Positions 1-57,316 of a stretch of 64,000 nt of DNA are shown piece by piece. Below the pieces are notes generated by a model. The model saw only the letters and a list, made by a program, of their open reading frames with translations, ran no database searches and was not told the DNA's origin. The position numbers were made by a program, and so were the translations under genes. Origin of the DNA: an uncultured candidate division WWE3 bacterium (lineage in GTDB: Bacteria; Patescibacteriota; WWE3; UBA101185; UBA10185); the NCBI GenBank assembly GCA_963765125.1, contig CAVXUZ010000005.1, forward strand, positions 177,816 through 241,815. Reading direction: 5' to 3'. The stretch's first letter is position 1; the number at the start of each line of letters is the position of its first letter.

Positions 1-178
1 TTACATATAGTCAAGCAAAAAAATACCTAGAAGAATTAACGCTAGAATCTAACCATGAACGAAAATATACAAAATATTCTCGAGGAATTAAAAGCAAAAG
101 AACCAGTTTTTTAAACTCTTTAGATAATTGTTCAACAAAAGAAAGACTTAAAAATATCAATAAGCTTTTTATTGTTAT

Positions 179-1693
179 CTACTTTACTTGTTTTAGCTCG
201 TTACCATCCCACTCAATCACAGGCCCGTTTCCATAATCTGCATTTATTTCTACTGAATGGTTTTGCCACGTTCCATAATCAATTGTTTTGTTCTCGGGAC
301 CTTCAAAAGGTACTATTGCAAAATAAAGTTTTATTTTATAGCTATTTGATGATGTCTCCTCCAATGTTCCACTTTCTTTAAACTGTGCTACCCGAAACTC
401 TCTTCTAAAGCTTTCACCATTATCAAAAACTTTACCCAAAGTATAAATACCACCAAGATCTATGTCCTCTTCAGGTTTAGCTGCTAAATCATCCCAGCAT
501 GTTGGTGAATAGCAAGTATCCATCATAAAAGAAGACCCGCTCACGTTTACCACTTTAATAATCTGATTTGGAATATCTTCTATCTTATTTTCAGTTATTT
601 CTTCTTTTACAACATCACCTGTTCTTTCAGTTTCTTTAGTTGAAATTGCCAAGAAATCCTCTACTTCTGCCTGTGTCATTGGCTTATATTCCTTGTTTAG
701 ACTCTTTAACCAAGCTTCGACTTCAACCATTTCCATTTCTGTAGCGGTGACGGTCTCTGGGTATTTAGCTTGTCTAATACGTTGAAAAGGTTTCTGATAT
801 TCAAAATTTCTAAGATCTACACCGATTACCTTACCTTCTTGAGCAGCGTCTCTAGCCTGCTCTAACCCGATCATCACGCTGTCGAATTTACCAAACGCAT
901 TACCAAGATTGCTGGGTACATTGGCAATAGTCAAAATATTGGCAATTGGCTCGGTTACAGTTCTTACATTTCCAACAAATGAAGATACTTTGTTTCTATC
1001 ACCCATAGCTATTTGAGCACCATCCTCGGTCACTTCTAGCGCCAAATCAACTCCTACAATAACCACAGATGCCTGAGTTAGTGTTCCAGCAGTAGCTAAT
1101 CCTGCAACGCCTCCGGTCAAGACAACTCCTCCAACGAAACCAACAACCTTACAACCATCCTTGACCACAATGGCGGTATTTTCTAATGTTTCAAAAGAAT
1201 CTCCTTCTTCTGTAAAGACATCAGAATTTATTTGAGCCTGAGCTTGATCTAGAATGATTTGAGCTCTTTTGGCATCCACACCCAAATGATTCGCTAAAGT
1301 TGAAATTCCTTTAAATCTTGGCGCTTTATCGTAGATAGCTGAGATTTCCTTAGCTGTATAAGCATTGACTATTTGAATTAATTGATAATTGGCAGCGGCT
1401 TTTTCTGCAGTGATAGTAGCAGAAGTCTCAAGTTTTTGTGATTCCTTTTCCAGGCTGTTCCAATCTTTAATCAACTCTGCCATATCGTTTTTCCATGTTG
1501 AGTAATCAGCATATTCTTCTGCGTTCACTAAGATATTATCGGTTCGATAGCGCAATATTAAATATGCTTTAGAGACGTCATACGTTGATCCTATGACTTT
1601 TTGCTCATTTTGATTACGATTATTAATAAGTAAAGCTACAACTATAACCAACACAATAATCGCAAAGAATATAAGTAGTTTTTTGTTTATCAT
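179..1693 (-). CDS. hypothetical membrane-anchored protein (single N-terminal TM, large extracytoplasmic domain)
   Basis: 504-aa ORF with a hydrophobic N-terminus (LLIFFAIIVLVIVVALLI). No recognised catalytic motif. Co-oriented immediately downstream of the giant surface protein. Confidence 0.5.
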   Translation of the reverse strand: MINKKLLIFFAIIVLVIVVALLINNRNQNEQKVIGSTYDVSKAYLILRYRTDNILVNAEEYADYSTWKNDMAELIKDWNSLEKESQKLETSATITAEKAAANYQLIQIVNAYTAKEISAIYDKAPRFKGISTLANHLGVDAKRAQIILDQAQAQINSDVFTEEGDSFETLENTAIVVKDGCKVVGFVGGVVLTGGVAGLATAGTLTQASVVIVGVDLALEVTEDGAQIAMGDRNKVSSFVGNVRTVTEPIANILTIANVPSNLGNAFGKFDSVMIGLEQARDAAQEGKVIGVDLRNFEYQKPFQRIRQAKYPETVTATEMEMVEVEAWLKSLNKEYKPMTQAEVEDFLAISTKETERTGDVVKEEITENKIEDIPNQIIKVVNVSGSSFMMDTCYSPTCWDDLAAKPEEDIDLGGIYTLGKVFDNGESFRREFRVAQFKESGTLEETSSNSYKIKLYFAIVPFEGPENKTIDYGTWQNHSVEINADYGNGPVIEWDGNELKQVK

Positions 1694-1762
1694 AAAGCAA
1701 TATTACTAGATTTAATTATTCTTACAAGCAAAAAAGATTTGATAGAAATTAATTTGTGATAG

Positions 1763-4700
1763 TTATAAATTAGGTGTAACAGTAAAATAAACAATATCTG
1801 TATATTCTCCCGCTATTGTGTTTGGGGACATCGTTGCTTTAAATAACAACGTTGCAGTTTCGTCTGCAACTCCTACAGTATTTGAAAAAATAGGATTTGT
1901 TGAGATTTCTAATCCACCTACAGTATTTCCACTTACATTATATTTTGAGTCAACCACAGCTGTAGCAGAACTTGCCTGGACACCGTAGCCTTCTACACCT
2001 GGTGTTAAAACCATGTCAGCTGACATAATTGTGCTACCAGAGCCGTTAAATAATCCACCAACATAACCATTGCCATCATCATTTATATAAACTTGGTATC
2101 CTGTATACCCGTTGGTATTAACTGCTACGTTCATAGTGGTAGTTTGAGAGATACTATTAATATTTAAGGTGCCCAATGTTAGAGATGCTTTTGAAACTGA
2201 CATGTTTACATAGGGTACAGTAGTAGTAGACGCATTAGATTCAGGGCTATACTCTGTCTCAGTAAAATCCCCTTGCAGTGCCTTTACTCTCGCTTTGTAT
2301 GTACTTTTTGGCATTAAATCAAGAATATAAGAGCCCGAACTTCCTCCCCACGAATCATAAGTTCTATAATCTTCTATTCCCAAAGTGTCTCCTACAGTAC
2401 CGTCGTTTTGTACATACTGATAAGAGCTGAAGTCGTTTGATGATACTTTGACTGCATATAAAGTGTCCGTAGGATTGCCCGCAGTGCTCAACGTTATGGT
2501 TAACCTACTATAAGAATTATCTGAATTTATTAAAGCCGGCGCATACGGTGTGTTAACTTCAATTCTTGAGTTATATCCAATCTTAGTTCTGAAACTAGCA
2601 GAGTCGTCAATTCCTGCAAACGGGTTTATTTCACCAAGTATGCCAAAGTTTGTACTAGACCCAGAGGCTGAGCCTGCAGAAAGAGCGTCACCTCTTATTC
2701 TAAAACTGGGGCTGTACATTTCATCTGACGTAAACTCTTGCTCATCCTCCCAACTACCGTAGGCGGGTTCGTTGTTAGTGTAACTCCTAATCCAAATTGC
2801 GTCATAGTTTGAATACGTTGTTGAGTAGGTAAAAACACCTGTTCTTCCGGTACTGTATGTGGTTTCACTTGATCTTGTTGTTGTACTTGTGGGTGTACCT
2901 GTATAAACAGCTGACTCGGTGTATAGTTCCGAGATAAGTGAATTACTATTTGCTCTATATAAATTAACCAGATACCAAGTATCTAAAGAAACTAAATAAG
3001 ATCCATTAGTAATAAGAGTGTATGAAGTGTCAACTCTAATTTGTGGAGAAACAGCGCCTCTACCATCTAATGTTGCCTGGTATCCGCTGTTTGCGGACGA
3101 CGCACCGGCTGTATGCAACCCTGGACCAAGTGTATCTACATCGATTGCGCCAGACTCAATACGAAGCCACCCCTCTTGAACATAGTTGTCAACGCTAAAA
3201 TTATTAACGTCCTGCATCTGAATTCTATAATCATTAGACGCATGATTTACGTCACCACAGCCGCTACCTTCTTTACACGAATTGGTACTAGTAGAAAATG
3301 TAATTCCCGAAGCACCCGCAGTATCAAAAAGAATGTTACTATCATCAAAATCCTCAAAATGATCAAACGTAGCAGAGCCATTGGATGTCGTTGATGCTGA
3401 GGAATTACCATAATAAATTAGAATACCAGCACCCCCTGATAAAGGAATAGAATCAATCTCAACATAAAAAACAGCCTTGTCACTATCAATTTTTTGTATA
3501 AGGTAATAGTCGAGCTCAACTCCATCGAGACTTGTAAATCTAATATCTCCAAAATCAGTTTTGCATTTGGAATCTAGGTATACATTCATGCCACTGTCAG
3601 TTCCACTGCCGTAATTTACAACTATCTTTTTTTCGTAGTTTAATAGTGTCCCGTCTACTGATGACTCAATATTTAATGGTTTTCTATATTGCCAAGAGCT
3701 ATTAAGCCAACCAGTAATCTCAATAATTGGCGCAACCTCTTCCTCTAAGCTCCAAAAGCCAAAAGTGGGTTCATCTTCTGTACGATTTCTAATCCATATT
3801 GCATCAAAATTTGAATATGCTGTTGAATATGCAAACACACCGTGTCTACCTGTATTGCGCGTGGTTTCACTTGAACGTACCGTTGTAGTTGTTGGTGTAT
3901 TCGTATATGCTGCTCCTTCAGTAAACAACTCAGACTTAATGTCACTACCATTATCCCTATAAAGGTTAATAAGATACCAGGTGTTCAATGCTATTTGATA
4001 CGCGCCATTCGTTCTCCCAGTATTGCTAGTATCTTCTCTTATTTGTGGTGATTCTGCACTCCTATAGTCTATTATTGCCTGGTAACCGTTCAGTGAAGAA
4101 GCTGCGCCTGCCATGTGCAAACCAGGTCCGAATTGATCGTTACCTGTAGCACCAGATTCAATCCTTAACCATCCCTCTTCAATATACTCGTCGACATCAA
4201 AATCTGTAGTGTTTTGCATTTGTGTTCTATACGCCATAGATGGATTATTTACATCACCGCACCCACCCCCTTCCTTACATGAAGTAGTACTTGCAACAAA
4301 AGTTACACCAGCAGATCCAGCTGTGTCGAAAAGCCAGCTACTGTCATCAAAGTCCTCAAAGTGATCAAAGGTAGCAGATCCGTTTGATGTAGTTGATGCA
4401 GCGACATTGCCATAATATATATATACGTCGGTTCCTCCAGAGGCTGGAATTGAATTAATTTCTACAAAAAAAGTTGCTTTATCACTATCAGTTTTTTGTA
4501 ATAGGTAATAGTCTAGTTCTGTTCCATTTTCTGTGGCAAACCTAATATCTCCAAAATCTATATTACTTTTTGAGTTTAAATACACGTCCATGTCGCTGTC
4601 AGTACCAGCACCATAATTTACAGTTATTTTTTTTTCGTAATTTGTTAACACACCATCCGCAGAAGAATTAATATGTATTGATTTTCTGTACTGCCAAGCG

Positions 4701-4849
4701 CTGCTAAACCAAGCAGCCTCAACAACAGGAGGGTTTATGATGAAGGTGAGAAAAATAGCTCCTACAGTTAAACAACAAAACAAGCCATAACGTATCTGAC
4801 AAAGTACTCTAAAACAAATACCTAATGTTTTTCTTAAATAGCGAAGCAT
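1763..4849 (-). CDS. large secreted/surface protein with two tandem DUF2341-like + concanavalin/LamG-like modules and a C-terminal Ig-like region
   Basis: 1028-aa ORF with an N-terminal signal/TM. Two ~330-aa internal copies each start with WQYRK..I.I.S..DG.L.NYEKKI.VNYG.GTDS, which matches my memory of the DUF2341 N-terminal signature. Each copy continues through FGDIRF...LDYYL and CKEG.GCGDVN. The C-terminal third has a beta-rich, Ig-like composition. Confidence 0.6.
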   Translation of the reverse strand: MLRYLRKTLGICFRVLCQIRYGLFCCLTVGAIFLTFIINPPVVEAAWFSSAWQYRKSIHINSSADGVLTNYEKKITVNYGAGTDSDMDVYLNSKSNIDFGDIRFATENGTELDYYLLQKTDSDKATFFVEINSIPASGGTDVYIYYGNVAASTTSNGSATFDHFEDFDDSSWLFDTAGSAGVTFVASTTSCKEGGGCGDVNNPSMAYRTQMQNTTDFDVDEYIEEGWLRIESGATGNDQFGPGLHMAGAASSLNGYQAIIDYRSAESPQIREDTSNTGRTNGAYQIALNTWYLINLYRDNGSDIKSELFTEGAAYTNTPTTTTVRSSETTRNTGRHGVFAYSTAYSNFDAIWIRNRTEDEPTFGFWSLEEEVAPIIEITGWLNSSWQYRKPLNIESSVDGTLLNYEKKIVVNYGSGTDSGMNVYLDSKCKTDFGDIRFTSLDGVELDYYLIQKIDSDKAVFYVEIDSIPLSGGAGILIYYGNSSASTTSNGSATFDHFEDFDDSNILFDTAGASGITFSTSTNSCKEGSGCGDVNHASNDYRIQMQDVNNFSVDNYVQEGWLRIESGAIDVDTLGPGLHTAGASSANSGYQATLDGRGAVSPQIRVDTSYTLITNGSYLVSLDTWYLVNLYRANSNSLISELYTESAVYTGTPTSTTTRSSETTYSTGRTGVFTYSTTYSNYDAIWIRSYTNNEPAYGSWEDEQEFTSDEMYSPSFRIRGDALSAGSASGSSTNFGILGEINPFAGIDDSASFRTKIGYNSRIEVNTPYAPALINSDNSYSRLTITLSTAGNPTDTLYAVKVSSNDFSSYQYVQNDGTVGDTLGIEDYRTYDSWGGSSGSYILDLMPKSTYKARVKALQGDFTETEYSPESNASTTTVPYVNMSVSKASLTLGTLNINSISQTTTMNVAVNTNGYTGYQVYINDDGNGYVGGLFNGSGSTIMSADMVLTPGVEGYGVQASSATAVVDSKYNVSGNTVGGLEISTNPIFSNTVGVADETATLLFKATMSPNTIAGEYTDIVYFTVTPNL
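2750..4711 (-). repeat. tandem duplication of a ~990-nt coding module (two copies, about 4711-3725 and 3724-2750) inside the surface-protein gene
   Basis: The protein copies are ~60-70% identical over ~325 aa. DNA-level similarity is also visible, e.g. ccaagagctattaagccaacc versus ctgccaagcgctgctaaaccaagc. Confidence 0.7.
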
Positions 4850-5551
4850 TGGTTTAATTTTAGCAGATATATATTAAGTAAATGAGGGGTTTGTCTTACT
4901 ACAAGGGATAAAACCAGTTTATATTTTCACTATGAGCTCCAAAAAGGTTTTTATGTGTAGTCTAGTTAAAATTTAATTATTTTGTAATTATCTATTTATG
5001 CATCAAAAGGTTTTTGTGGCTGACCATCGCCATCGATGTTAGAACTGCTATTTTAATTTAAAAGCACTCAGTAAGCCTTACAAACTCCAGAATTTCCACT
5101 CTCATATATACCCACCTCTTTTACCGCAATCTTTTTAAGTGTAGATGTTATTTCTTTCGTATCAACCTTTTGAGAGACTTTACCAAGCGTTACGTGTGAA
5201 TTGTAGGTTGTGAATACCCAAGGAGTGCTATATTTAAAGCCATTCGTTTTTCGTCTTTGTTGAGTTCATTCATATAATTACTATCATAGTATTTCTCCCT
5301 AACAAACCCATCTCTTTGAATACCTATCTTCTCAATAATTGTTTTCTGTAATTTTCTTAACTCGCCACTTAACTTGAAATTGAGATATCGATACATTGAT
5401 AAAGGTCACAAAAAAGGAAATGAAGTTATTACCGTTTCCAATAATCATAGCTAAAAGTCCTTGTATGTTTAATGTTTATATCCCAATTGAAAGACAATTA
5501 TGGTTTGGTGATTTTGCATGACGCTACACTCATAATCTGTATAATTAAAGT

Positions 5552-6157
5552 ATGAAAAATAATAAACTAATCTCAATTCTGATAATAATCTTAGTTTGTA
5601 TGGGTTATTTACTATATAAAAATAATCAAAGTGAATCACCAAATAAATCCCCTGAAATTACAACAATGGAACAAACTGAACCTAAAGACGAAAAACACCA
5701 AATAGGATTAAGCAACCCTGCATCGACCTATTGCGCACAGAACAATGGTGAGTTGGAAATAATTACCGATGCTGATGGAAGCCAATTTGGTCTATGCAAA
5801 TTTAAGGATTTCTCTTGCGAGGAGTGGACTTACTTTAGAGGCGAGTGCGACATTACAGGAGATGCTGAGAGTATTAGACAGGAACTAATTAAAAAAGGGT
5901 TAGATCTTTCAAAAATGAAAGTGGTTATAAACAAGCATTTAGGTAAATATATTGGAGCGTCTGTCGTACCTGTAGACATCAGTGAGGGTGGTGGCGGTGG
6001 TTACGTGTTTGCGGTAAAAGATGAGGGCGTAATTAAAGTACTAGCTGACGGTAACGGGATAATTTCATGTGAGTCGTTTAAGGATTATCCTGAATACCCA
6101 GCATATTTAGTATCTGGATGTGTGGATTCTGTTACGGGCGATGTTGTGAAAAGATAG
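5552..6157 (+). CDS. secreted DUF333 (putative hemolysin/YoaF-like) domain protein with an extra C-terminal domain
   Basis: N-terminal TM/signal, then NPASTYCAQNNGELEI...DGSQFGLCKF.DFSCEEWTYFRGEC, the characteristic Cys-rich DUF333 motif. Good SD/AT-rich upstream. Confidence 0.55.
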   Translation: MKNNKLISILIIILVCMGYLLYKNNQSESPNKSPEITTMEQTEPKDEKHQIGLSNPASTYCAQNNGELEIITDADGSQFGLCKFKDFSCEEWTYFRGECDITGDAESIRQELIKKGLDLSKMKVVINKHLGKYIGASVVPVDISEGGGGGYVFAVKDEGVIKVLADGNGIISCESFKDYPEYPAYLVSGCVDSVTGDVVKR

Positions 6158-6400
6158 TGATTTTCTATTTGGCTGGAACATTGTGCTTTAGTCGGAACAT
6201 TATTAAAGTTAAATATCACTAACTATCTTTAAAAATAATCACGAAACTGTTAATCAGTCTCTACAATGGTTCGAACTGGAAGATAAGTTGTTGTTAGAGG
6301 AAAATCAACCTATTTTATATTCATGCCTGGCCGTCTGGTCTCAGATTGGAACTTTTTCTAGTGTATTTTAGCGGCAAGTACTGAAATATATGCTAGATTT

Positions 6401-6874
6401 TTAAGGCATAAAACCATTTAGTATTTGGATATATTTTTCTTGAATCTCTTTTGGCACCAAAAAATCTTCTAAAAGCTCCATTTTGCCTTTGTTTATAATT
6501 ATTCGGTTACAAGGAGAATAGTAAAACTCATTTTTAGTAGCAACAAAAAGAAATGATGGATCCCATGATTTAACAGCTTCCAGAGCTAAATCATTTATTT
6601 CCTTGTAATTAATTGTGTTTCTATATTTTACTTCCACTAAATATGCTTCAGATTTATCATTTTTTATTAAAACAAAATCTGGCATTTTATTAAAATTACT
6701 AACTACTTTTGGGAGAATAAGATTATGATACTGGGCTAGTTCAGGAATTGTATTCTCGTAACCAAAGGGAATTACAGTGAAATTTCCAACTTCAGAGAAC
6801 ATTTGTTGAAAAATAACTTCGGTGATTTTACCCTTTATTAATTGTGTAACAAAATATGTATGATCCTTTTCCAC
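6401..6874 (-). CDS. hypothetical protein with a PD-(D/E)xK nuclease-like motif
   Basis: 157 aa. PDFVLIK...AYLVEVKYR fits the D-x(n)-E-x-K core of restriction-endonuclease-fold proteins. No other family signal. Confidence 0.35.
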   Translation of the reverse strand: MEKDHTYFVTQLIKGKITEVIFQQMFSEVGNFTVIPFGYENTIPELAQYHNLILPKVVSNFNKMPDFVLIKNDKSEAYLVEVKYRNTINYKEINDLALEAVKSWDPSFLFVATKNEFYYSPCNRIIINKGKMELLEDFLVPKEIQEKYIQILNGFMP

Positions 6875-6951
6875 ATATAAATCATACCCTACATTTGTAG
6901 TTAATGAAAAAATTGTTAATTGGATATGTTGTTGCTATAGAAAGAAAACTC

Positions 6952-7025
6952 TGGCTGGGGAACAGGGACTCGAACCCCAATTTTCGGGACCAAAACCCGA
7001 CGTGCTGCCATTACACCATTCCCCA
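6952..7025 (-). tRNA. tRNA-Gln (anticodon UUG)
   Basis: The reverse complement folds as a canonical cloverleaf: acceptor TGGGGAA/TTCCCCA, anticodon stem TCGGG/CCCGA with loop TTTTGGT, T-loop GGTTCGAGTCC, 3' CCA encoded. Confidence 0.8.
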
Positions 7026-7069
7026 ATGGTTTACTAAAACTCAAAAAATCACCAAACCAAAAATATATT

Positions 7070-7147
7070 TGGTGGGCCTGCATGGGACTCGAACCAAGGA
7101 CCTCTCGGATGTAAACCGAACGCTCTAACCAGCTGAGCTACAGGCCC
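7070..7147 (-). tRNA. tRNA-Val (anticodon UAC), T-arm imperfect
   Basis: Reverse complement GGGCCTGTAGCTCAGCTGGTTAGAGCG...TTTACAT...GGTTCGAGTCC...CAGGCCCACCA. Acceptor, D-arm and anticodon arm are canonical. The T-stem has mismatches or one extra nt (78 nt including CCA). Confidence 0.55.
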
Positions 7148-7225
7148 AAAAGAAATTTACCTCTTAGGCTTACGTATTTTAACAATATTTTTAGGTTTTA
7201 TCATCAATTAATCTATAATGTACTT

Positions 7226-8122
7226 ATGAGATTGAAGCTACTTTTACTATTTACGATTATTATCGTTTGCACGCTACTTCTATATTTTGTAGCCGATTTA
7301 GATAATCACAATGTTTTAGGCCTAAAAAACGACGAGTCATCGGTTTTTGAAAAGTTTTTACCGAAGTTTAATACTCTTCAAAGAAGTTCACGATTTAAAA
7401 ATCTAACTGATGTAACTAAAGGTAAAGAAGGAACATTTGGAATTTATATTAAAGATTTAGATTCTGGTGCTACTTTCGCTTTTAATGAGACAGAGTTATT
7501 TTATGCGGCGTCTCTATTTAAAACTCCCCTAGCAGCGTCTGTGCTAAAACTCGTAGATGAGGGCGCTCTTAAATTAGATAACGAAAATATTTACACGCAG
7601 TCAGATTATTCTGACGGTACTGGTTCAATTGCTTACAACTCTTACGGTTTAACTTACACCTATGACCAACTACTAGACCTATTACTAAAAGAATCTGATA
7701 ATTCTGCACAAAATATAATTATGAGAACAATAGGTGCTCCAAACGCTGAAAATGCATTTAAACTAATTCCACTAAAAAATCACTTTTTTGAGAATAATAC
7801 TGCCACTCCTGAACAAATCGCTATTTTTTATGAAAAGCTTGTAATGAGCAACTATTTAAAGAAAGACAGCTTAGATAGCCTTTTGGAGCGTATGAAGAGC
7901 ACTTTGTTTGATGATAGGGTGCATTTAGGTCTTGAAGAAAACGTTGAATTTGCGCATAAAATTGGCAATTGGCCAGATACTTCAACTTGGCATGACTGTG
8001 GTTTGGTGATTGACGAAAATAATACAATAGTCGTTTGCTTGATGAGTAGATACACTACGCTTGAAGATTTTAATATAGTAGCTAAGAGTACAGGTGAATT
8101 TGTTAATTACCTGCTAGACTAA
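7226..8122 (+). CDS. class A beta-lactamase-related serine hydrolase (PBP-like), membrane-anchored
   Basis: SxxK (AASLFKTP), SDN (ESDNSAQN) and a KTG-like HKIGNW in the correct order and spacing. N-terminal TM. Confidence 0.55.
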   Translation: MRLKLLLLFTIIIVCTLLLYFVADLDNHNVLGLKNDESSVFEKFLPKFNTLQRSSRFKNLTDVTKGKEGTFGIYIKDLDSGATFAFNETELFYAASLFKTPLAASVLKLVDEGALKLDNENIYTQSDYSDGTGSIAYNSYGLTYTYDQLLDLLLKESDNSAQNIIMRTIGAPNAENAFKLIPLKNHFFENNTATPEQIAIFYEKLVMSNYLKKDSLDSLLERMKSTLFDDRVHLGLEENVEFAHKIGNWPDTSTWHDCGLVIDENNTIVVCLMSRYTTLEDFNIVAKSTGEFVNYLLD

Positions 8123-8126
8123 ATAT

Positions 8127-8621
8127 ATGTATTGGTATAAAGAGACAAACACCGACCAGTTTAAAGAATATTACGCAAAAAGAAATTCAATAGTAGCAAA
8201 AATGAAGCGTGCATTTGTTATTTACACATTTTTTACTATTTTAGCAATTGGAGGATTTCTACTATTTTCAGGAATAAATTATTTTGACGTACCAAATCTA
8301 TGTTTTTTAAAAATTAAATATGATAATAAAAATGGCGACGCAGGCACTATAAAGCAAGCAATAGAAAAGATAAAAGTGGAGGATTTTACAAAATATCGAG
8401 AACTATGTACTTATGTAGATAAAATATTTGAAAAACCCTGCACACTAGCCTCACCTAAAAATGGAAACCTCTTTGTCGCAAACTCTGATGGTTGCTATAT
8501 TTACGGCTCAAAAATAATTATGATAGAGCCAGAAGTTGCAGAAGATGGGTTGGTAAGTAGGCGCGCTAATCTGATTAAGAATTACACAGAAAAATCAAAA
8601 ACGTTTTGGGTATCTCAATAA
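8127..8621 (+). CDS. hypothetical membrane protein
   Basis: 164-aa ORF with one TM segment. No recognisable motif. Confidence 0.4.
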   Translation: MYWYKETNTDQFKEYYAKRNSIVAKMKRAFVIYTFFTILAIGGFLLFSGINYFDVPNLCFLKIKYDNKNGDAGTIKQAIEKIKVEDFTKYRELCTYVDKIFEKPCTLASPKNGNLFVANSDGCYIYGSKIIMIEPEVAEDGLVSRRANLIKNYTEKSKTFWVSQ

Positions 8622-8622
8622 T

Positions 8623-9057
8623 TTATAATTTTGTAACACTGTCTAAAAACACTGTACTTTTCTCATAGCATTCGACTTCATCAAGGTATCTACCCTCTCT
8701 CGCCTGCATAGCGTGGCACATTTCGTGAATAATAATCGCTGAGCCAACAGCAGGGTTTGATTGATCATTTCCGACATATATCTTTTGAGGTTTACTTGCT
8801 CTAAAACAACCTCCGTCAAAACCACCGCAGCTTGGATTCATATCAATTACTTCAATATTTGTACAAAGTTTTTGATAATTATCTGGCGTGGCGTATTTAA
8901 TGATTCTAATTGCTTCTTTAGTATCTAGATTACTTGGAAGATATGAGGGAATGATTGTAATAAAACACTTGTTATCTTTGTCGAAATATATGAAGAAATG
9001 GTATACAAATAATCCAAAAAGAACAAACAAAAAAATAAATTTCAAAATCTTCTTCAT
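8623..9057 (-). CDS. small secreted Cys-rich protein with an HExxH motif (putative Zn-metallopeptidase-like)
   Basis: Signal/TM N-terminus. IIIHEMCHAMQ contains HExxH. Family not identified. Confidence 0.35.
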   Translation of the reverse strand: MKKILKFIFLFVLFGLFVYHFFIYFDKDNKCFITIIPSYLPSNLDTKEAIRIIKYATPDNYQKLCTNIEVIDMNPSCGGFDGGCFRASKPQKIYVGNDQSNPAVGSAIIIHEMCHAMQAREGRYLDEVECYEKSTVFLDSVTKL

Positions 9058-9132
9058 ACAATAAGAGTAGATGATTTATCGTAAAAGAGCAAAGAAAGAC
9101 CCGAACTAAATATATAATTCGGGTCTTTGAGA

Positions 9133-10041
9133 CTATATGTACCTATATAACTTATTCACAATAATCAAGCCATAGTGCTTAGTACCTGCGCAAACGACCG
9201 GTGTTTGATGATTCCAGTCGTAAGTGCCTGCTCGTTTGTTGTAAGACGCCCAGATATTCACACAGAATGGTTTATCAACTTTATATGGATTAATAACAAA
9301 CCCACCTGCGCCGGAGATCAACTTATATGCTGCTCCGAGCTCATGGTGTTTTTGAGACAAACTAATCTGAGCATTGACTGAGCCGTCTGACACACACGCC
9401 ATTTCGTATGCAGCCGATCCGGGATTTCGTAAATATCCTTTTTCCATTCCAAACGCGTTCATAACTGCTGATCTTGTTTGAGGATAGTACATGTCTGCAA
9501 CGATGATTTGCGATCCTAAATTGACTAAATCTTCTTTTGCAGTAATTGCATACTCCTGTTTACTATCCAGTGTTCTAGCGACTCTTGTTCTACGGTTTTT
9601 ATCAGCAACCCAATTAGCGCCAGTTCTGTAATCCATAACACCCGCGGCAAGAATATCATTAAAAAAGATATCATCTCCAGCAGTTACTAGGGCAATTGTA
9701 ATTGCAACTGAATATGGAAATCCATCTGTGGCTTTTGCTTTTTCAAAATCAAGGGAAGCATCAAGAGGATCAATTGCAACAAGTACAAATTTACTATTTG
9801 CAGTATTGCAGTGATATTCAGGATCAAGTCCCTCAATAATTGTTGCACCACACCATTTTAATGAAGAAAAGTACTCTAAATAAAGTTCACCAAGAATACG
9901 GTCTGCTTTAATTTCACGATCATTGTGAAGATCGCCTGAAGCAACACCTTTCTTAATGACGTTCCTTCCTTCATCATTTTTTAATTCGCGTATTTTGCTG
10001 TATCCCAGCCGGAAAGCTTGTTGTAAAGCTTCTGTATACAT
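9133..10041 (-). CDS. inositol monophosphatase / FBPase (FIG) superfamily phosphatase
   Basis: DLHNDREIKADRIL (the DLVTxxDRxxE-like metal-binding motif), VLVAIDPLDASLDF (DPxDGT-like), GSAAYEMACVSDG and HELGAAYKLISGAGG (WDxAAG/EAGG-like region) in canonical order. The coding DNA is visibly GC-richer than its flanks. Confidence 0.55.
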   Translation of the reverse strand: MYTEALQQAFRLGYSKIRELKNDEGRNVIKKGVASGDLHNDREIKADRILGELYLEYFSSLKWCGATIIEGLDPEYHCNTANSKFVLVAIDPLDASLDFEKAKATDGFPYSVAITIALVTAGDDIFFNDILAAGVMDYRTGANWVADKNRRTRVARTLDSKQEYAITAKEDLVNLGSQIIVADMYYPQTRSAVMNAFGMEKGYLRNPGSAAYEMACVSDGSVNAQISLSQKHHELGAAYKLISGAGGFVINPYKVDKPFCVNIWASYNKRAGTYDWNHQTPVVCAGTKHYGLIIVNKLYRYI

Positions 10042-20747: not shown

Positions 20748-22433
20748 TTACCAACTTCCACCGCCACCGCCACCGCCCCCACCGCCTGAGAATCCTCCAC
20801 CGCCTGAAAACCCGCTAGAGAAGCCGCTAGAGCTTCTGGATGAGCTATAATGGCTCATTGAGGATGAAACAGCGCTGTTTATGTTGTGTGTAAGTCCAGA
20901 AAATACAGCAGCATTTGCAAGATCTCCAGAGTACCAATCAGTTTTTAGTTCTCCTAAATCTTTGAATCGTTTAATCCATACATCTTCTACGCCAAAGGCT
21001 GCAGCGTAAGGAAGGAGTTTTTCAAAGAACATCATCGCCTCTGCTTGAAAATCTAATTGCGCATCTTGACTTACTAGAAAGTTTTTTAATGAGGCAGTTT
21101 TTGAATACTTATCTATTCCCTTGTCTGTAAATTTTATAAAGTGTCGATGATAGTAGAAAAGTACTAAAAGCAATGGGATGTTAGCTGTGAAGAGAGCAAG
21201 CCCTACTAGTACCCAATGTTTTGCTTTTTCGTTTGATAAATCACCAACAAAAAGATTTTTCTTTTCTAATGCTTCGACCGATTTTTCCATAAATTTCTGA
21301 ATATTTTCTCCTAGTGTTATAGATTTCTTCAATTCCACAAAACTTGCCATGTCAGAGTTCTCAAATATTGCATCATAGAGGAGCTTTTCGTAATCCTCTA
21401 AACCTGTTGCAGCTTGTTTAGTATTTTTTACAAAATATAATTTCTTTTCCTGCTGTTCAATTTTAAAATAACCTCTTTGCGCAAGATGTATGATTGTTGC
21501 TGATACTTCTTTTTGGTCAGGTTTTTTATCAATGAGTACTCCAGTCTCTGCTGGTGTATAAAAAGTTCCGTTATCATTTGTTGGCGGTTCAAACCAAGCA
21601 GCAACCTCTTGCTTATTATTCTTAAAGAACTTCTTAAAACCATGCCTTTTAATTATAATTTTTACTGGAAGAACTATTACCCAGAAAAAATAACCTAAAC
21701 CTAAGATAATAGGTAGTATTGTTTCCCATATACTTTTCTTTACTTCAACAGGCTCGAGTTGTGCTACAAAGCCTTTTGGAAATCCAACTACACCGGTGAT
21801 GCCCTCGTTCATTCCAAGTAATTCTGCAGTGATCAGCGCGCCTTTTTCAGTAACTAATTTATTGCATGATTGATCGGTAGACCCCTTTATCCCTCGATAG
21901 CACATCGCATTTATTTCGGAGCCTATAACACTATCCGGCAGAATTACATTGTTTTTAGATGAATAAATTGGCACATTCCATTCGTTTCCTGTGAAGTTCC
22001 AAAACATTTCATCATGGTCTTCGTAGTATGTTACGGCACCAGATACAACGTAGTTTATTTTATATATTTTAGTACCTGTTATAAGTTTGTCGGCGTCCCC
22101 AATTTTAATTGTAAGTTTTCCTGAAGAGTTATCGCTAGACTCAACAAATGTATATGCCGTACCAATATCATCTGTAACCGAAACATCCGAAATCAACATT
22201 TTAAATGTCTTACCATCCTGGTTTGTTTTAAAGTAAGGAATTATTCTAAAAATCCCATGTCTCTGCTCTTCACCAAAATTATATTTTATTGTCTCGTTAA
22301 CAAATATCTGACCGTCAGATTCAACTCTTACGGTGCTATCAAAAGACTCAATTACCTCCCCTGCAAAAACATGAGTCGAAAATATCATTAAAAGTAGTGA
22401 AAATATTAAAGATTTTAAAGTTATGCTTTGCAT
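20748..22433 (-). CDS. DUF2207-family membrane protein
   Basis: Signal peptide, extracytoplasmic N-domain, TM helices, and a C-terminal Ser/Gly tail (SSSRSSSGFSSGFSGGGGFSGGGGGGGGGGSW) characteristic of DUF2207 proteins. Confidence 0.55.
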   Translation of the reverse strand: MQSITLKSLIFSLLLMIFSTHVFAGEVIESFDSTVRVESDGQIFVNETIKYNFGEEQRHGIFRIIPYFKTNQDGKTFKMLISDVSVTDDIGTAYTFVESSDNSSGKLTIKIGDADKLITGTKIYKINYVVSGAVTYYEDHDEMFWNFTGNEWNVPIYSSKNNVILPDSVIGSEINAMCYRGIKGSTDQSCNKLVTEKGALITAELLGMNEGITGVVGFPKGFVAQLEPVEVKKSIWETILPIILGLGYFFWVIVLPVKIIIKRHGFKKFFKNNKQEVAAWFEPPTNDNGTFYTPAETGVLIDKKPDQKEVSATIIHLAQRGYFKIEQQEKKLYFVKNTKQAATGLEDYEKLLYDAIFENSDMASFVELKKSITLGENIQKFMEKSVEALEKKNLFVGDLSNEKAKHWVLVGLALFTANIPLLLVLFYYHRHFIKFTDKGIDKYSKTASLKNFLVSQDAQLDFQAEAMMFFEKLLPYAAAFGVEDVWIKRFKDLGELKTDWYSGDLANAAVFSGLTHNINSAVSSSMSHYSSSRSSSGFSSGFSGGGGFSGGGGGGGGGGSW

Positions 22434-53090: not shown

Positions 53091-53732
53091 ACATTATTTA
53101 TATCATATTGTGTAAAAGCTTCTTTTGAGAAAGTGGCAAATTAAAAACAGCCGCGTTGTTAATACTTGCGACTGTTTAAGTAATTTGTGGAAAGCAAAAT
53201 ACCTTATTCGTAGGCTCAAACGGTATAGGAATATACTTTAAACCCTTTCCTTTTCTTACTGTTGTAGCAATTTTACAGTATTTTTGTACAATTTATAAAA
53301 GTAGGATTTATACGTACATATGCCATTTTTCAACAAAAAATGATTTGACCCCAGATTATTCTATTTCTCTGAGGTCTATAGTTTATAAGAATTCTTTTTA
53401 ACTGGTTACTGTTCTTATTTGTTTAAATAACATCATACTGAGTTTTTAATGCATACCTCTTCGCTCGCCAGTGACGCCAAAATGGTAGCCCAAAAAAGAG
53501 CTTTGCATCCTTTAACGTGCTATACAAAAATCCGTCAGTACCAACATAACCTTTATATCTACCACAGTCTTGTAAAACAGATACACTCTTTTTGTTAACT
53601 ATTAAATCAATCACATACACGTACCCACGCATTGTTACTGCCTCCTTCTCAGAATTGGTTTAAGATCAGGCGTTAAATATAATTGCTGGAATTATATGCA
53701 GTTTTACCATACGAGTCAAACGCTACAGGATA

Positions 53733-53748
53733 TTGGGGTGGCTGACCG
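53733..53748. repeat. 16-nt direct repeat of the tRNA-His 3' end (att-like)
   Basis: ttggggtggctgaccg occurs identically at 53733-53748 and again at 53900-53915, where it is the tRNA-His 3' end. Confidence 0.6.
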
Positions 53749-53850
53749 AACTCGGTCACGTGTCTTTTGTCTGTAGCTCACTTTGGTGCACAACATACAA
53801 AAGCACTCGACCCCGCCTCCTTCGCTTCGCTCAGTCCGGCATTCGATCCC

Positions 53851-53900
53851 TGTAAACACAAAGAAAGCTGTCATCCACCTTCGGTGAATACCAGCTTTCT
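53851..53900 (-). terminator. rho-independent terminator immediately after tRNA-His
   Basis: agaaagctg / cagctttct 9-bp stem. On the minus strand it is followed by TTTGTGTTT. Confidence 0.45.
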
Positions 53901-53976
53901 TGGGGTGGCTGACCGGGCTCGAACCGGCGACATCCTCTTCCACAGAGAGGCGCTCTACCACTGAACTACAGCCACC
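53901..53976 (-). tRNA. tRNA-His (anticodon GUG) with genome-encoded G-1
   Basis: Reverse complement G|GTGGCTGTAGTTCAGTGGTAGAGCG CCTCT CTGTGGA AGAGG...GGTTCGAGCCCGG TCAGCCAC C CCA. There is an extra 5' G opposite discriminator C73. Confidence 0.8.
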
Positions 53977-55431: not shown

Positions 55432-56598
55432 TTATTTTAACAAAATTTGCTGATAAATATCTCTATGTTGCTCTGCAATCTTTTTCCAGCTTCTTGCTAC
55501 AGCCTTTTTAGCAACGTTTGTCTCTATCTCTTTTACCAACTGTGGGTTTTCAGCAATCTCTAGAAATGCTTTATCCCAGTCGCTATTTGATGTTAAATAG
55601 CCATCAACCTTGTGAGTAATCTCTTCATTATAATTTCCTATTTTCGAAGCAATTACACATTTTTTAAATCCGAAAGCCTGTGCTAAAGGTCCGCTTGCTG
55701 AAATACTTATTACTGCCGGTATAACGCAACAATACGCACGACTAAACTGTTTTTCGATTTGTTCTTTTTCTAAAAAGCCTAAAATGTTTACGTTGTTAGT
55801 TAATTTAAGTTTTTTAATCAGATTTTTTATTTCTTCAAACGCAAATTCCTGGCCTTTAATAACTCCTCCGCCCATAATTAGTTTTGTATTTTTATACTTT
55901 GGATTTTGAATAAACTTTGCAAACCCTCTCAAAATATTTTCTATTCCTTTGCGTCTTGCAAAATAACCAAAATAAAAAAAGTCCTTTGACCTTTCTTTTG
56001 TAGACGAATTTATGATTTTTACACCGTGACTTAAAACCTCAACTTTTTCTTTTTTTACACCATAATCATTTGTTAACCACTTTTTTAATAAATTGGTATG
56101 AACAATAACTTTTTCTACAAGCAGACCTGTTACAAGCGCAAAATAATTAAAGAAACTAATGAGAAGTTCTGGTTTGATGATTGATTTGCCTCCTCTAAAC
56201 ATTCCAACAAAATTCTGGTCAATTATCTTTTTGGGTACAACAGCGTGCTGGGTAATAACAATTTTAAATCCGTAGATTCTTAAAATCATAAAAAACAGAG
56301 GTAAAAAAGAGTTTGTAAGTGCTCCACCAAACATATTAGTTTCATATTGAAAATGCACGATTTTTGGACGATCGATGAAGAGTTCGCTTAAAATAGATAC
56401 AAAAAATAATACCCCCTTTTGCCAAACGGGCTTAACTTTGCCAAAACCACTGGTTTGTCTACTCCTCGTTGAAGTTGGTGCATACACAACTAGCTCTGGT
56501 TTATCTGATTTTGACAGCTTTTCGTACTCTTGAACCAAAAAACTCGAATAGTTAGAATACGGCTCCAAACTGGTAATCATCACAACTATATTTTTCAT
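55432..56598 (-). CDS. family-4 (GT-B) glycosyltransferase
   Basis: C-terminal GT4 fold features (EGFGLP-like region reduced). 388 aa. Confidence 0.6.
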   Translation of the reverse strand: MKNIVVMITSLEPYSNYSSFLVQEYEKLSKSDKPELVVYAPTSTRSRQTSGFGKVKPVWQKGVLFFVSILSELFIDRPKIVHFQYETNMFGGALTNSFLPLFFMILRIYGFKIVITQHAVVPKKIIDQNFVGMFRGGKSIIKPELLISFFNYFALVTGLLVEKVIVHTNLLKKWLTNDYGVKKEKVEVLSHGVKIINSSTKERSKDFFYFGYFARRKGIENILRGFAKFIQNPKYKNTKLIMGGGVIKGQEFAFEEIKNLIKKLKLTNNVNILGFLEKEQIEKQFSRAYCCVIPAVISISASGPLAQAFGFKKCVIASKIGNYNEEITHKVDGYLTSNSDWDKAFLEIAENPQLVKEIETNVAKKAVARSWKKIAEQHRDIYQQILLK

Positions 56599-56716: not shown

Positions 56717-56791
56717 GGCCCCATCGTCTAACGGTTAGGACATCAGGTTTTCATCCTGGAAATCGGAGTTCGATTCTCCGTGGGGTCACCA
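56717..56791 (+). tRNA. tRNA-Glu (anticodon UUC)
   Basis: GGCCCCATCGTCTAACGGTTAGGACA TCAGG TTTTCAT CCTGG...GGAGTTCGATTCTCC GTGGGGTC A CCA. Confidence 0.85.
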
Positions 56792-56792
56792 A

Positions 56793-56830
56793 AAGCGCAG
56801 ATATCACCTAGCGTGATAGTTGCGCTTTTG
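56793..56830 (+). terminator. rho-independent terminator immediately after tRNA-Glu
   Basis: aagcgca(gatatcac ctagc gtgatagt)tgcgctt long hairpin followed by TTTG. Confidence 0.5.
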
Positions 56831-56914
56831 TGATTTCGGAGGGGACGTACTAGCGTAAGCGTGTTCGACAATTTGAACAAAGTGAGAATTGGTAGCGAAC
56901 ATAGTGAGCGTGTT

Positions 56915-56932
56915 TCTCCGTGGGGTCACCAT
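56915..56932. repeat. 18-nt direct repeat of the tRNA-Glu 3' end (att-like)
   Basis: ttctccgtggggtcacca occurs identically at 56774-56791 (inside tRNA-Glu) and at 56915-56932. Confidence 0.6.
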
Positions 56933-56998
56933 AATCTTGAATTATGCGTAAAAAAACACCACATTTGGATATACCGTGAATGTGGTGTTTGTTTTTTT

Positions 56999-57316
56999 TT
57001 AGTGCCTATCTAAATTGTGTAACCCGTTGTAGTATCTCATGGCCTTTTCGTACCCCTGGTTATCGAATATTGCTTTTACAAAACCTGGAATAAGTGCGTC
57101 AACTTTCCTGATTTCAAGTCCAGTACCTGGCGTTTTGATGTAATCCCAAATTGTTATGGACATTAGAAGAACAAACTCTTCGGGGGTCATCTCTTGTCCA
57201 GACCAACAAAGTAAGACAGGATATACATTTTTCTCTATCGCCTCTTCTGAACAGACGTCTCTTAGTTTGCTCAAAAGTTCAACCTGCCTCGGTAAAACAA
57301 CTGTTTCGTTGTCCAT
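56999..57316 (-). CDS. hypothetical protein
   Basis: 105 aa. No motif. Confidence 0.35.
   Translation of the reverse strand: MDNETVVLPRQVELLSKLRDVCSEEAIEKNVYPVLLCWSGQEMTPEEFVLLMSITIWDYIKTPGTGLEIRKVDALIPGFVKAIFDNQGYEKAMRYYNGLHNLDRH

Follow-up and report, generated by a model that had tools for sequence, protein, structure and literature searches.

An exact displaced copy of a tRNA-Glu 3′ end in a CPR chromosome as a possible footprint of a miniature integrative module

Results

A duplicated tRNA end at two genes of the window

The window, by which we mean the whole 64-kb stretch of DNA analysed here, is part of a 482-kb contig. It is a low-GC chromosomal stretch (GC 32-39%) of an ultra-small CPR/Patescibacteria bacterium, and the glycosyltransferase encoded at 55432-56598 has its closest named relative in candidate division WWE3 (47% identity). 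No close relative of the genome was present in the collections searched. Ten tRNA genes were called concordantly by ARAGORN and Rfam, and CCA is encoded in 10/10 of them. Just downstream of the tRNA-Gly/Phe pair, a 561-aa ORF (20748-22433) contains two tandem 18-nt units at 20776-20811 (CCCCCACCGCCTGAGAAT / CCTCCACCGCCTGAAAAC), which probably encode a proline-rich peptide repeat. The features of the two tRNA loci that are the subject of this work are collected in Table 1.

Table 1. Features at the tRNA-Glu and tRNA-His loci of the window
Feature	Coordinates	Strand	Basis
Intact tRNA-His(GUG)	53901-53975	-	ARAGORN, Rfam
Terminator hairpin directly 3′ of tRNA-His	53861-53900	-	Fold, sequence
Exact phage-type G.A hairpin motif GACTGAGCGAAGCGAAGGAG	53817-53836	-	Sole window match at ≤3 mismatches; 0.01 expected by chance
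Displaced copy of tRNA-His 3′ end	53733-53754	-	22 nt with 2 mismatches
Intact tRNA-Glu(UUC), encoded CCA	56717-56791	+	ARAGORN; Rfam tRNA model, 60.4 bits
18-nt repeat TTCTCCGTGGGGTCACCA, first copy (tRNA positions 59-76)	56774-56791	+	Exact match; numbering from sequence
Terminator hairpin (AAAGCGCA...TGCGCTTT + T-run), left part of insert	56792-56829	+	MFE fold; terminator scan 56810-56826
CGGAG, identical to tRNA T-stem 5′ strand	56837-56841	+	Sequence; pairing seen in folds
G.A hairpin A (CAATTTGAACAAAGTGAGAATTGG)	56869-56892	+	Pattern scan match at 56873; sequence
G.A hairpin B (TAGCGAACATAGTGAGCG)	56893-56910	+	Only window match to GAGCGAACGAAGTGAGCG; 0.02 expected by chance
Displaced second copy of the 18-nt tRNA-Glu 3′ end	56914-56931	+	Exact match
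Second hairpin, A-run + T-run (ACACCACATT...AATGTGGTGT)	56950-57000	.	Sequence, ORF list

The original prediction had described an 18-nt direct repeat of the tRNA-Glu 3′ end downstream of the gene, and this repeat proved to be real and exact. Its sequence occurs exactly twice in the 64-kb window, with no third site even at 2 mismatches, and with the same 2 mismatches allowed it was matched in 0/100 dinucleotide shuffles of the window. The second copy had been placed at 56915-56932, which is off by one nucleotide (correct, 56914-56931); its downstream location was right, and the spacing of 124 bp has to be replaced by a measured gap of 122 nt (140 nt start to start). The 18 nt comprise the last two T-loop bases, the 3′ strand of the T-stem, the 3′ strand of the acceptor stem, the discriminator, and CCA, so that the first base of the repeat directly follows the invariant T-loop base A58 and its last three bases are CCA. 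The sequences downstream of the two copies are unrelated to each other. The arrangement is a direct repeat of the 3′ part of a tRNA, 18/18 nt identical, with the intact tRNA at one end.

Between the two copies, the terminator hairpin occupies the 38 nt immediately after CCA and ends in a T-run, and 84 nt lie between it and the displaced copy, in agreement with the predicted hairpin followed by ~85 nt. These 84 nt are G-rich and C-poor. The CGGAG at their 5′ side may tentatively be paired, in the modelled folds, with CTCCG of the downstream copy, which would close a long hairpin. Further 3′, hairpin A combines a Watson-Crick stem with one tandem G.A pair and a loop of AAA, and hairpin B is a 3-mismatch variant of a phage-type motif, GAGCGAACGAAGTGAGCG, to which we return below. 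The ORF list holds no plausible gene within the 122 nt. The ends of the insert (AAAGCGCAGAT... / ...GTGAGCGTGT) are not inverted repeats, and with a repeat of 18-22 nt and no terminal inverted repeats the insert does not classify as a MITE or IS-type element. The second hairpin, 19 nt past the displaced copy, is a bidirectional terminator common to a convergent 105-aa ORF, and it is possibly the original terminator of tRNA-Glu. Neither an integrase nor a transposase nor a reverse transcriptase was detected by Pfam among the 28 window proteins tested, all neighbours included; nor was a recombinase gene found in the insert or among these proteins.

A geometry like that at tRNA-His had been claimed, and a parallel downstream copy with 16 exact nt was indeed confirmed there, ~3 kb from the tRNA-Glu case. 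The displaced piece corresponds to positions 56-76 plus 1 nt, with the differences C60T and C61T; its exact part, at 53733-53748, covers positions 62-76 and the following A. The insert between the gene and the copy is 146 nt long, and GCCGG at 53840-53836, located 5′ of the G.A motif, equals the T-stem 5′ strand of tRNA-His. Plain alignment of the Glu insert with the His insert gave no significant homology. At the remaining 8 tRNA genes of the window, no comparable downstream copy of the gene's own 3′ end is seen.

Related modules in Saccharibacteria and in metagenomes

To find orphan copies, we searched 185,579 genomes and the JGI metagenomes for the 18-mer without a preceding A58, a condition by which genuine tRNA genes are excluded. 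Most matches were high-GC coding coincidences, and three further low-GC cases were found (L010, L014, and L018), which were thus retrieved by the exact 18-mer and selected for a non-A at position 58. The first is a Saccharibacteria MAG, in which tRNA-Glu(CUC) is followed by two AT-rich hairpins and by the copy after 108 nt. The second, a 448-kb low-GC metagenome contig, has a terminator behind its tRNA-Glu(CUC), and the copy lies 165 nt past the tRNA. In L018, the contig begins 111 nt upstream of the copy, and any tRNA would fall outside it. The search also returned an orphan 18-mer at 1831-1849 of JAAUYH010113776.1 (L012), with no tRNA within 1.9 kb; this contig has a GC content of 39% and no long ORFs, and it may not be bacterial.

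The rplU gene adjoining the L010 copy was used as a handle to retrieve eight loci with an identical L21 protein. The same module was present in 6/8 of these Saccharibacteria loci, which come from NCBI, JGI, ENA, and Logan and from different samples. With the module recovered in six assemblies that are independent and derive from different samples, assembly duplication, named in the original prediction as a possible cause of the repeat, is excluded.

The cases share an architecture of intact tRNA, terminator hairpin(s), G/A-rich hairpin segment, and 3′-end copy. Read in the orientation of the module, the order is the intact gene end, a spacer of ~45-60 nt (at 3′ ends, the terminator), the G.A hairpins, and the displaced fragment, the spacer before the G.A hairpins being either a hairpin or AT-rich sequence. 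The polarity agrees in the five complete cases, including a mirror-image case described below (L037), and the cut L018 is consistent as far as it is visible. The repeat ends exactly at CCA in 2/4 Glu cases (the window and L014); in L010 and the His case, the shared sequence runs on by one A. The narrow size range (108-165 nt) favours a discrete module over random deletion remnants. With the mirror-image case included, the arrangement recurs in several CPR lineages and at three tRNA species.

What follows the displaced copy differs among loci. A near-consensus sigma-70-type promoter lies 5-15 nt past the copy at tRNA-His (TTGACT-17-TATAAT, window 53691-53719, minus strand) and at the Saccharibacteria tRNA-Glu (L010 6725-6765, minus strand). 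At the window Glu locus, in L014, and in L018, it is a terminator hairpin, not a promoter, that comes after the copy.

Comparison of five inserts revealed no common architecture within them, and most pairwise alignments were insignificant. The His insert and the Glu insert of L018 could be aligned (z=5.2), with the common blocks ATGC..GACTGAGC..AGCGAAGGAG, and the L010 and L014 inserts have the block AGGAG(G/A)ATCGAAC in common. The T-stem 5′ strand precedes the G/A-rich segment in the 3′ cases of the window (CGGAG at 56837-56841, GCCGG at 53840-53836), and AGGAG does so in L010, L014, and L018. The displaced piece could be a T-arm plus the acceptor 3′ strand, with the hairpin segment inside the T-loop; since the hairpin motif itself has GGAG as its conserved end, this reading is only tentative. 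We also observed that the inserts of L014 (2467-2478) and L010 (6834-6845) start with GGAG(A/G)ATCGAAC, which is the reverse complement of the T-loop and T-stem 3′ strand of their own tRNA (perfect in L014, 11/12 in L010), and that the resulting 12-bp inverted repeat encloses the acceptor end and the terminator.

In viral contigs, the 18-mer was found in phage-borne or adjacent tRNA-Glu genes and in high-GC coincidences, with no attP-like junction, and the module pattern GGAGRATCGAAC...TCTCCGTGGGG gave no matches there. One low-GC "viral" contig (L002, IMGVR_UViG_3300022821_001679, 1-9140) ends in a tRNA-Glu(UUC) nearly identical to that of the window. Beside this tRNA lies a defence-type island encoding a ParB/DndB-like protein, an SNF2 helicase, a cytosine methyltransferase, a restriction-like protein, and a large serine recombinase, and no second 18-mer is present. 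In a related organism, this same tRNA may have been the integration site of the island.

The module differs between strains

One of the loci with identical L21 (L029) has neither the insert nor the copy, and its tRNA-Glu is separated by 27 nt from the same rplU promoter. The module is absent there and present in L027 and L028, which is a strain-level difference. L029 does not amount to a clean empty site: where the filled allele has "atagc" between the copy and the rplU promoter, L029 has 27 nt of unrelated sequence after its CCA. More distant relatives (85%, 81%, and 62% L21 identity) have no module, and 2/3 of them lack this tRNA at the locus. The module is labile and not conserved. Among the filled alleles, all six variable positions lie within the terminator hairpins, and the overall diversity is low; a selection test among the strains was dropped because the diversity was too low.

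Several further observations concern the surroundings of these loci. In L033 (JGI Ga0558119_04407, ~560-800), the module is present and the acceptor 3′ strand of the tRNA-Glu itself lacks 5 nt (ctccgt-----cacca), ARAGORN calls no tRNA, and the distal 18-nt copy is intact; the 5-nt deletion may be an assembly error or a broken gene. Comparison of L027-L034 with L024, L019, and L021 places a rearrangement breakpoint at the tRNA-Glu upstream of rplU. The upstream neighbour of this tRNA is mostly IleRS, and NUDIX/aldo-keto reductase in L029 and L033; in the 62% relative, IleRS adjoins rplU with no tRNA between. A 236-nt indel separates Saccharibacteria strains between rplU and parA.

For the window itself, synteny was of no help. 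The homologs of the neighbouring glycosyltransferase are at most 47% identical and lie away from tRNAs, and the closest relatives by TyrRS (n=3, 63-69% identity) all have a different gene order. Four tRNAs of the TyrRS relatives were inspected and had no 3′ copies, and one of these relatives has a 5′ mirror case. In this relative (L037, 63% TyrRS identity), a copy of the 5′ end of tRNA-Gln(CUG) lies upstream of that gene (3788-3861). The repeats cover positions -3 to 20 (3637-3659) and positions 18-29 (3730-3741), and together they make up a 32-nt fragment (-3 to 29) whose D-loop is interrupted by a GTA-flanked segment of 70 nt. The 70-nt segment contains two G.A hairpins on the antisense strand, and 43 nt separate the fragment from the intact gene. 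As the repeat includes 3 nt upstream of the mature 5′ end, it speaks for a DNA-level event.

Hairpins of the inserts in viral genomes

The 20-mer GACTGAGCGAAGCGAAGGAG of the His insert was found exactly in nine IMG/VR viral contigs of GC 31-70%, where ~0.1 would be expected by chance, and also in the Bacillus phages Jayan, PK-1, and PS1. The 18-mer GAGCGAACGAAGTGAGCG was found exactly in 72 IMG/VR viral contigs, against a rough estimate of ~2 by chance. Within the window, matches to both motifs at ≤3 mismatches lie solely inside the two inserts. Both words fit the same hairpin with a GAA or GNNA loop, whose pairing we read by hand as G1.A19 and A2.G18, two Watson-Crick pairs, G5.A15 and A6.G14, two further Watson-Crick pairs, and the loop. 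The motif takes the forms GACUGAGC-GAA/GNNA-GCGAAGGAG and GAGCGAAC-GAA-GUGAGCGA, between which the Watson-Crick pairs compensate (C-G to G-C, U-A to C-G, G-C to A-U) and the tandem G.A pairs are kept. Many copies have a variable outer stem, in which pairing is ~70% at the first two positions and near random beyond.

The viral hairpin loci (L039-L159) are intergenic in 69/79 cases, with no strand bias relative to the neighbouring ORFs; the idea that the hairpins are RNA 3′-UTR elements was rejected on this lack of bias. Their interpretation as duplication-making insertions was rejected as well, flanking direct repeats at the viral loci being no longer than those of controls. A hammerhead or other ribozyme reading of CUGAGCGAAG failed on a core misfit and on the absence of a match in Rfam. 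Cultured phages offered no empty-site comparison, no relatives sharing the intergenic regions. We noted G.A hairpins in the phage records PQ299153 (47356-47380), PP552876, PQ758588, and MH382836 (67259-67286), and copies often lie close to contig ends. Rfam contains no matching family, and the motif strings found no mention in the literature searched; the G.A hairpin is without description in either. It links CPR chromosomes to a sequence element spread over very different phages, and on sequence grounds the hairpin content suggests that the inserts are foreign DNA related to mobile elements.

Discussion

The original prediction had argued for a recurrent process rather than chance, and this is borne out by the two tRNAs of the window, the Saccharibacteria tRNA-Glu, L014, and the mirror-image 5′ end of tRNA-Gln. 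Of the three options that it offered, a mobile element or its scar gains support from the presence or absence in strains and from the phage-shared hairpin, and an RNA mimicking the tRNA end fares poorly, with no Rfam match and no promoter. We see about an even chance that the repeat is the footprint of a miniature, integrase-less integrative module, or a minimal scar, with an att-type duplication of the tRNA 3′ end. A mobile element or scar fits best because strains differ in its presence and because the inserts share a hairpin motif with phages. On such a model, a small non-coding module (122 nt at Glu, 146 nt at His) would enter the 3′ end of the tRNA and keep the gene intact, so that the tRNA would now end in one 18-nt copy followed by a terminator brought by the module. 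The distal copy would then probably be the original 3′ end with a degenerate T-arm, displaced by ~120 nt and non-functional. The complete gene would represent attL and the 3′ fragment attR, recombination would be the cause, and the enzyme responsible would presumably act in trans to mobilise the module. The model predicts an empty site, with tRNA-Glu joined directly to TAATCTTGAATT for the window and ATAGCTTGACTT for L010, and a circular junction of the form ...GTGAGCGTGT-TTCTCCGTGGGGTCACCA-AAAGCGCAG... The searches recovered neither a clean empty site nor an excised form, nor a full-length element with the same ends.

Further features speak against this reading. The repeat starts at position 59, and because of this the T-loop cannot be the crossover segment of T-loop-class integrases; moreover, a spacer of ~45-60 nt without the G.A segment in every case would be odd for a decayed prophage. 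The 100% identity of the 18 nt to the tRNA could reflect selection or gene conversion. We regard as rather unlikely, while worth stating, a bolder proposal in which the inserts are an undescribed family of ~110-170-nt non-autonomous CPR modules that home to tRNA-gene loops and are built from G.A hairpins circulating in phages. Their targets would be the T-loop on the 3′ side and the D-loop or anticodon stem on the 5′ side, and the gene would be restored by a tRNA end and a terminator or promoter that the module itself supplies. In a variant of this proposal, the modules would be products of reverse transcription, the template being a small RNA whose tail is the 18 nt of the tRNA accessible to reverse transcriptase.

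Local rearrangement, in which replication slippage or template switching at the T-arm hairpin was followed by decay of the extra copy, would need no mobility genes, terminal inverted repeats, or clean empty site, none of which were found, and tRNA stems are hairpin-forming and prone to template switching. A tandem duplication, however, would repeat the spacer, and the sequences after the two copies are unrelated; nor would different tRNAs and phyla be expected to share an ordered content (terminator, G.A hairpins, copy) and motifs, and we consider this origin unlikely. That the repeat is fortuitous or an assembly artefact has nothing to recommend it beyond the fact that the contig is metagenome-assembled, and its probability is negligible in view of the shuffles without a match, the second case in the window, and the same architecture in NCBI, JGI, ENA, and Logan assemblies. 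Another reading is a functional small RNA, or a tRNA 3′ extension, that mimics the T-stem/acceptor 3′ strand and CCA; an enzyme or toxin that binds tRNA ends might take it as a decoy or as a substrate, or it might provide the tRNA with an alternative 3′ end. The identity of the 18 nt to the tRNA in the window agrees with this, the three database cases having been preselected by that very 18-mer. A T-stem-like closing helix is possible at both loci (CGGAGGG/UUCUCCG at Glu, GAUCGAA/UUCGGUC at His); it has G.U pairs and so works on the tRNA-sense strand only, and the two mismatches of the His copy improve the pairing with GATCGAA upstream. The intact distal copy of L033, beside a tRNA whose 3′ end is deleted by 5 nt, points the same way. 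The structure prediction and covariance analysis that had been proposed as a check gave a divided answer, with fold z-scores from -0.8 to -3.1 across inserts: the window Glu segment (z -2.4) and L014 (z -3.1) fold better than shuffles, whereas L010 (z -0.8) does not, and the Rfam 15 covariance models match the tRNAs alone, at the gathering threshold as well as at permissive E (≤5, ≤1). Furthermore, the stretch from the strong terminator to the copy contains no promoter-like site, the five inserts lack a common architecture and mostly fail to align, the module is missing in L029 and in relatives, the G.A hairpins of L037 are antisense, and those of phages have no strand bias. The module is not a conserved RNA gene, and the RNA-mimic role in general appears distinctly unlikely.

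Very improbable, in our judgement, is an origin by reverse transcription, the copy being the cDNA of a mature tRNA 3′ end; recombination would then have brought into the tRNA gene either a small RNA with a tRNA-like tail or a cDNA primed by a tRNA. Its appeal lies in the borders. Positions 59-76 are the stretch that a reverse transcriptase copies from the CCA end before (m1)A58, and both borders are landmarks of RNA, the copy starting after A58 and ending at CCA76 in the window and L014; as to the A58 border, the window case alone is unbiased, the three database cases having been selected for non-A58. The lengths of 18 nt (Glu) and 22 nt (His, 2 mismatches) equal those of the two classes of 3′ tRNA fragments, which are 18 and 22 nt long, the same 18 tRNA nt (59-76) define retroviral primer-binding sites, and CPR genomes are rich in retroelements. 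Against it, the window proteins tested include no reverse transcriptase, the 5′ duplication of L037 with 3 nt beyond the mature 5′ end points to a DNA-level event, and well-known integrase cores at the DNA level have nearly identical borders. As CCA is encoded in every tRNA gene here, it gives no discrimination.

The miniature integrative module, if it is indeed mobile, would be among the smallest site-specific elements known, and it would point to a recombinase, or a reverse transcriptase, that acts in trans in CPR bacteria, a group with poorly known mobile DNA. Partial tRNA copies are routinely used to delimit integrated elements and to trace horizontal transfer. Modules of ~0.1 kb that duplicate a tRNA end would escape island finders, and they could pass for pseudogenes or for att sites of absent prophages.

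Among known systems, the closest likeness is the att duplication made by prophages, ICEs, and genomic islands with P4-type or other tyrosine integrases. P4-type islands typically carry 16-20-bp direct repeats of the extreme tRNA 3′ end including CCA. Elements of this kind likewise leave a complete tRNA and a partial direct copy, with a repeat of the extreme 3′ end including CCA and a tRNA that is still functional, as in the window. They differ in that they are kilobases long and have an integrase at the att site, whereas the inserts described here are 108-165 nt of non-coding DNA with no recombinase found nearby. Partial tRNA gene copies are the usual attR and a pervasive result of element integration, and the integrated elements concerned measure 9-23 kb and about 121 kb (PMC9897764). 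Relative to viral integration scars at tRNA genes, our module is about a hundred times smaller. A second parallel is provided by CIMEs, att-flanked derivatives of ICEs or IMEs that have lost the recombination module (reviewed in PMC5704250). CIMEs have att-type repeats and no integrase of their own and are presumed to be mobilised in trans, and the window module, as read here, would be alike in these respects. CIMEs still carry genes, however, and span several kb; their ICE ancestry is recognisable, and a partner ICE occupies the same site. None of this was seen here.

Two other systems share single traits with the insert. The primer-binding site of retroviruses and LTR retrotransposons corresponds to the same tRNA positions 59-76, CCA included, but it is complementary to the tRNA and lies inside an element encoding a reverse transcriptase; here the copy is in the sense orientation beside its own tRNA gene, without that complementarity, and the window proteins tested contain no RT domain. 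Casposons and similar transposons likewise insert at tRNA 3′ ends and duplicate more than 10 bp of the target. A casposon, however, is bounded by terminal inverted repeats, makes a 14-15-bp duplication, and encodes Cas1; neither terminal inverted repeats nor genes were found in the window inserts. Considering these likenesses and differences, the finding is best filed as a miniature form of the att-type duplication of a tRNA gene end.
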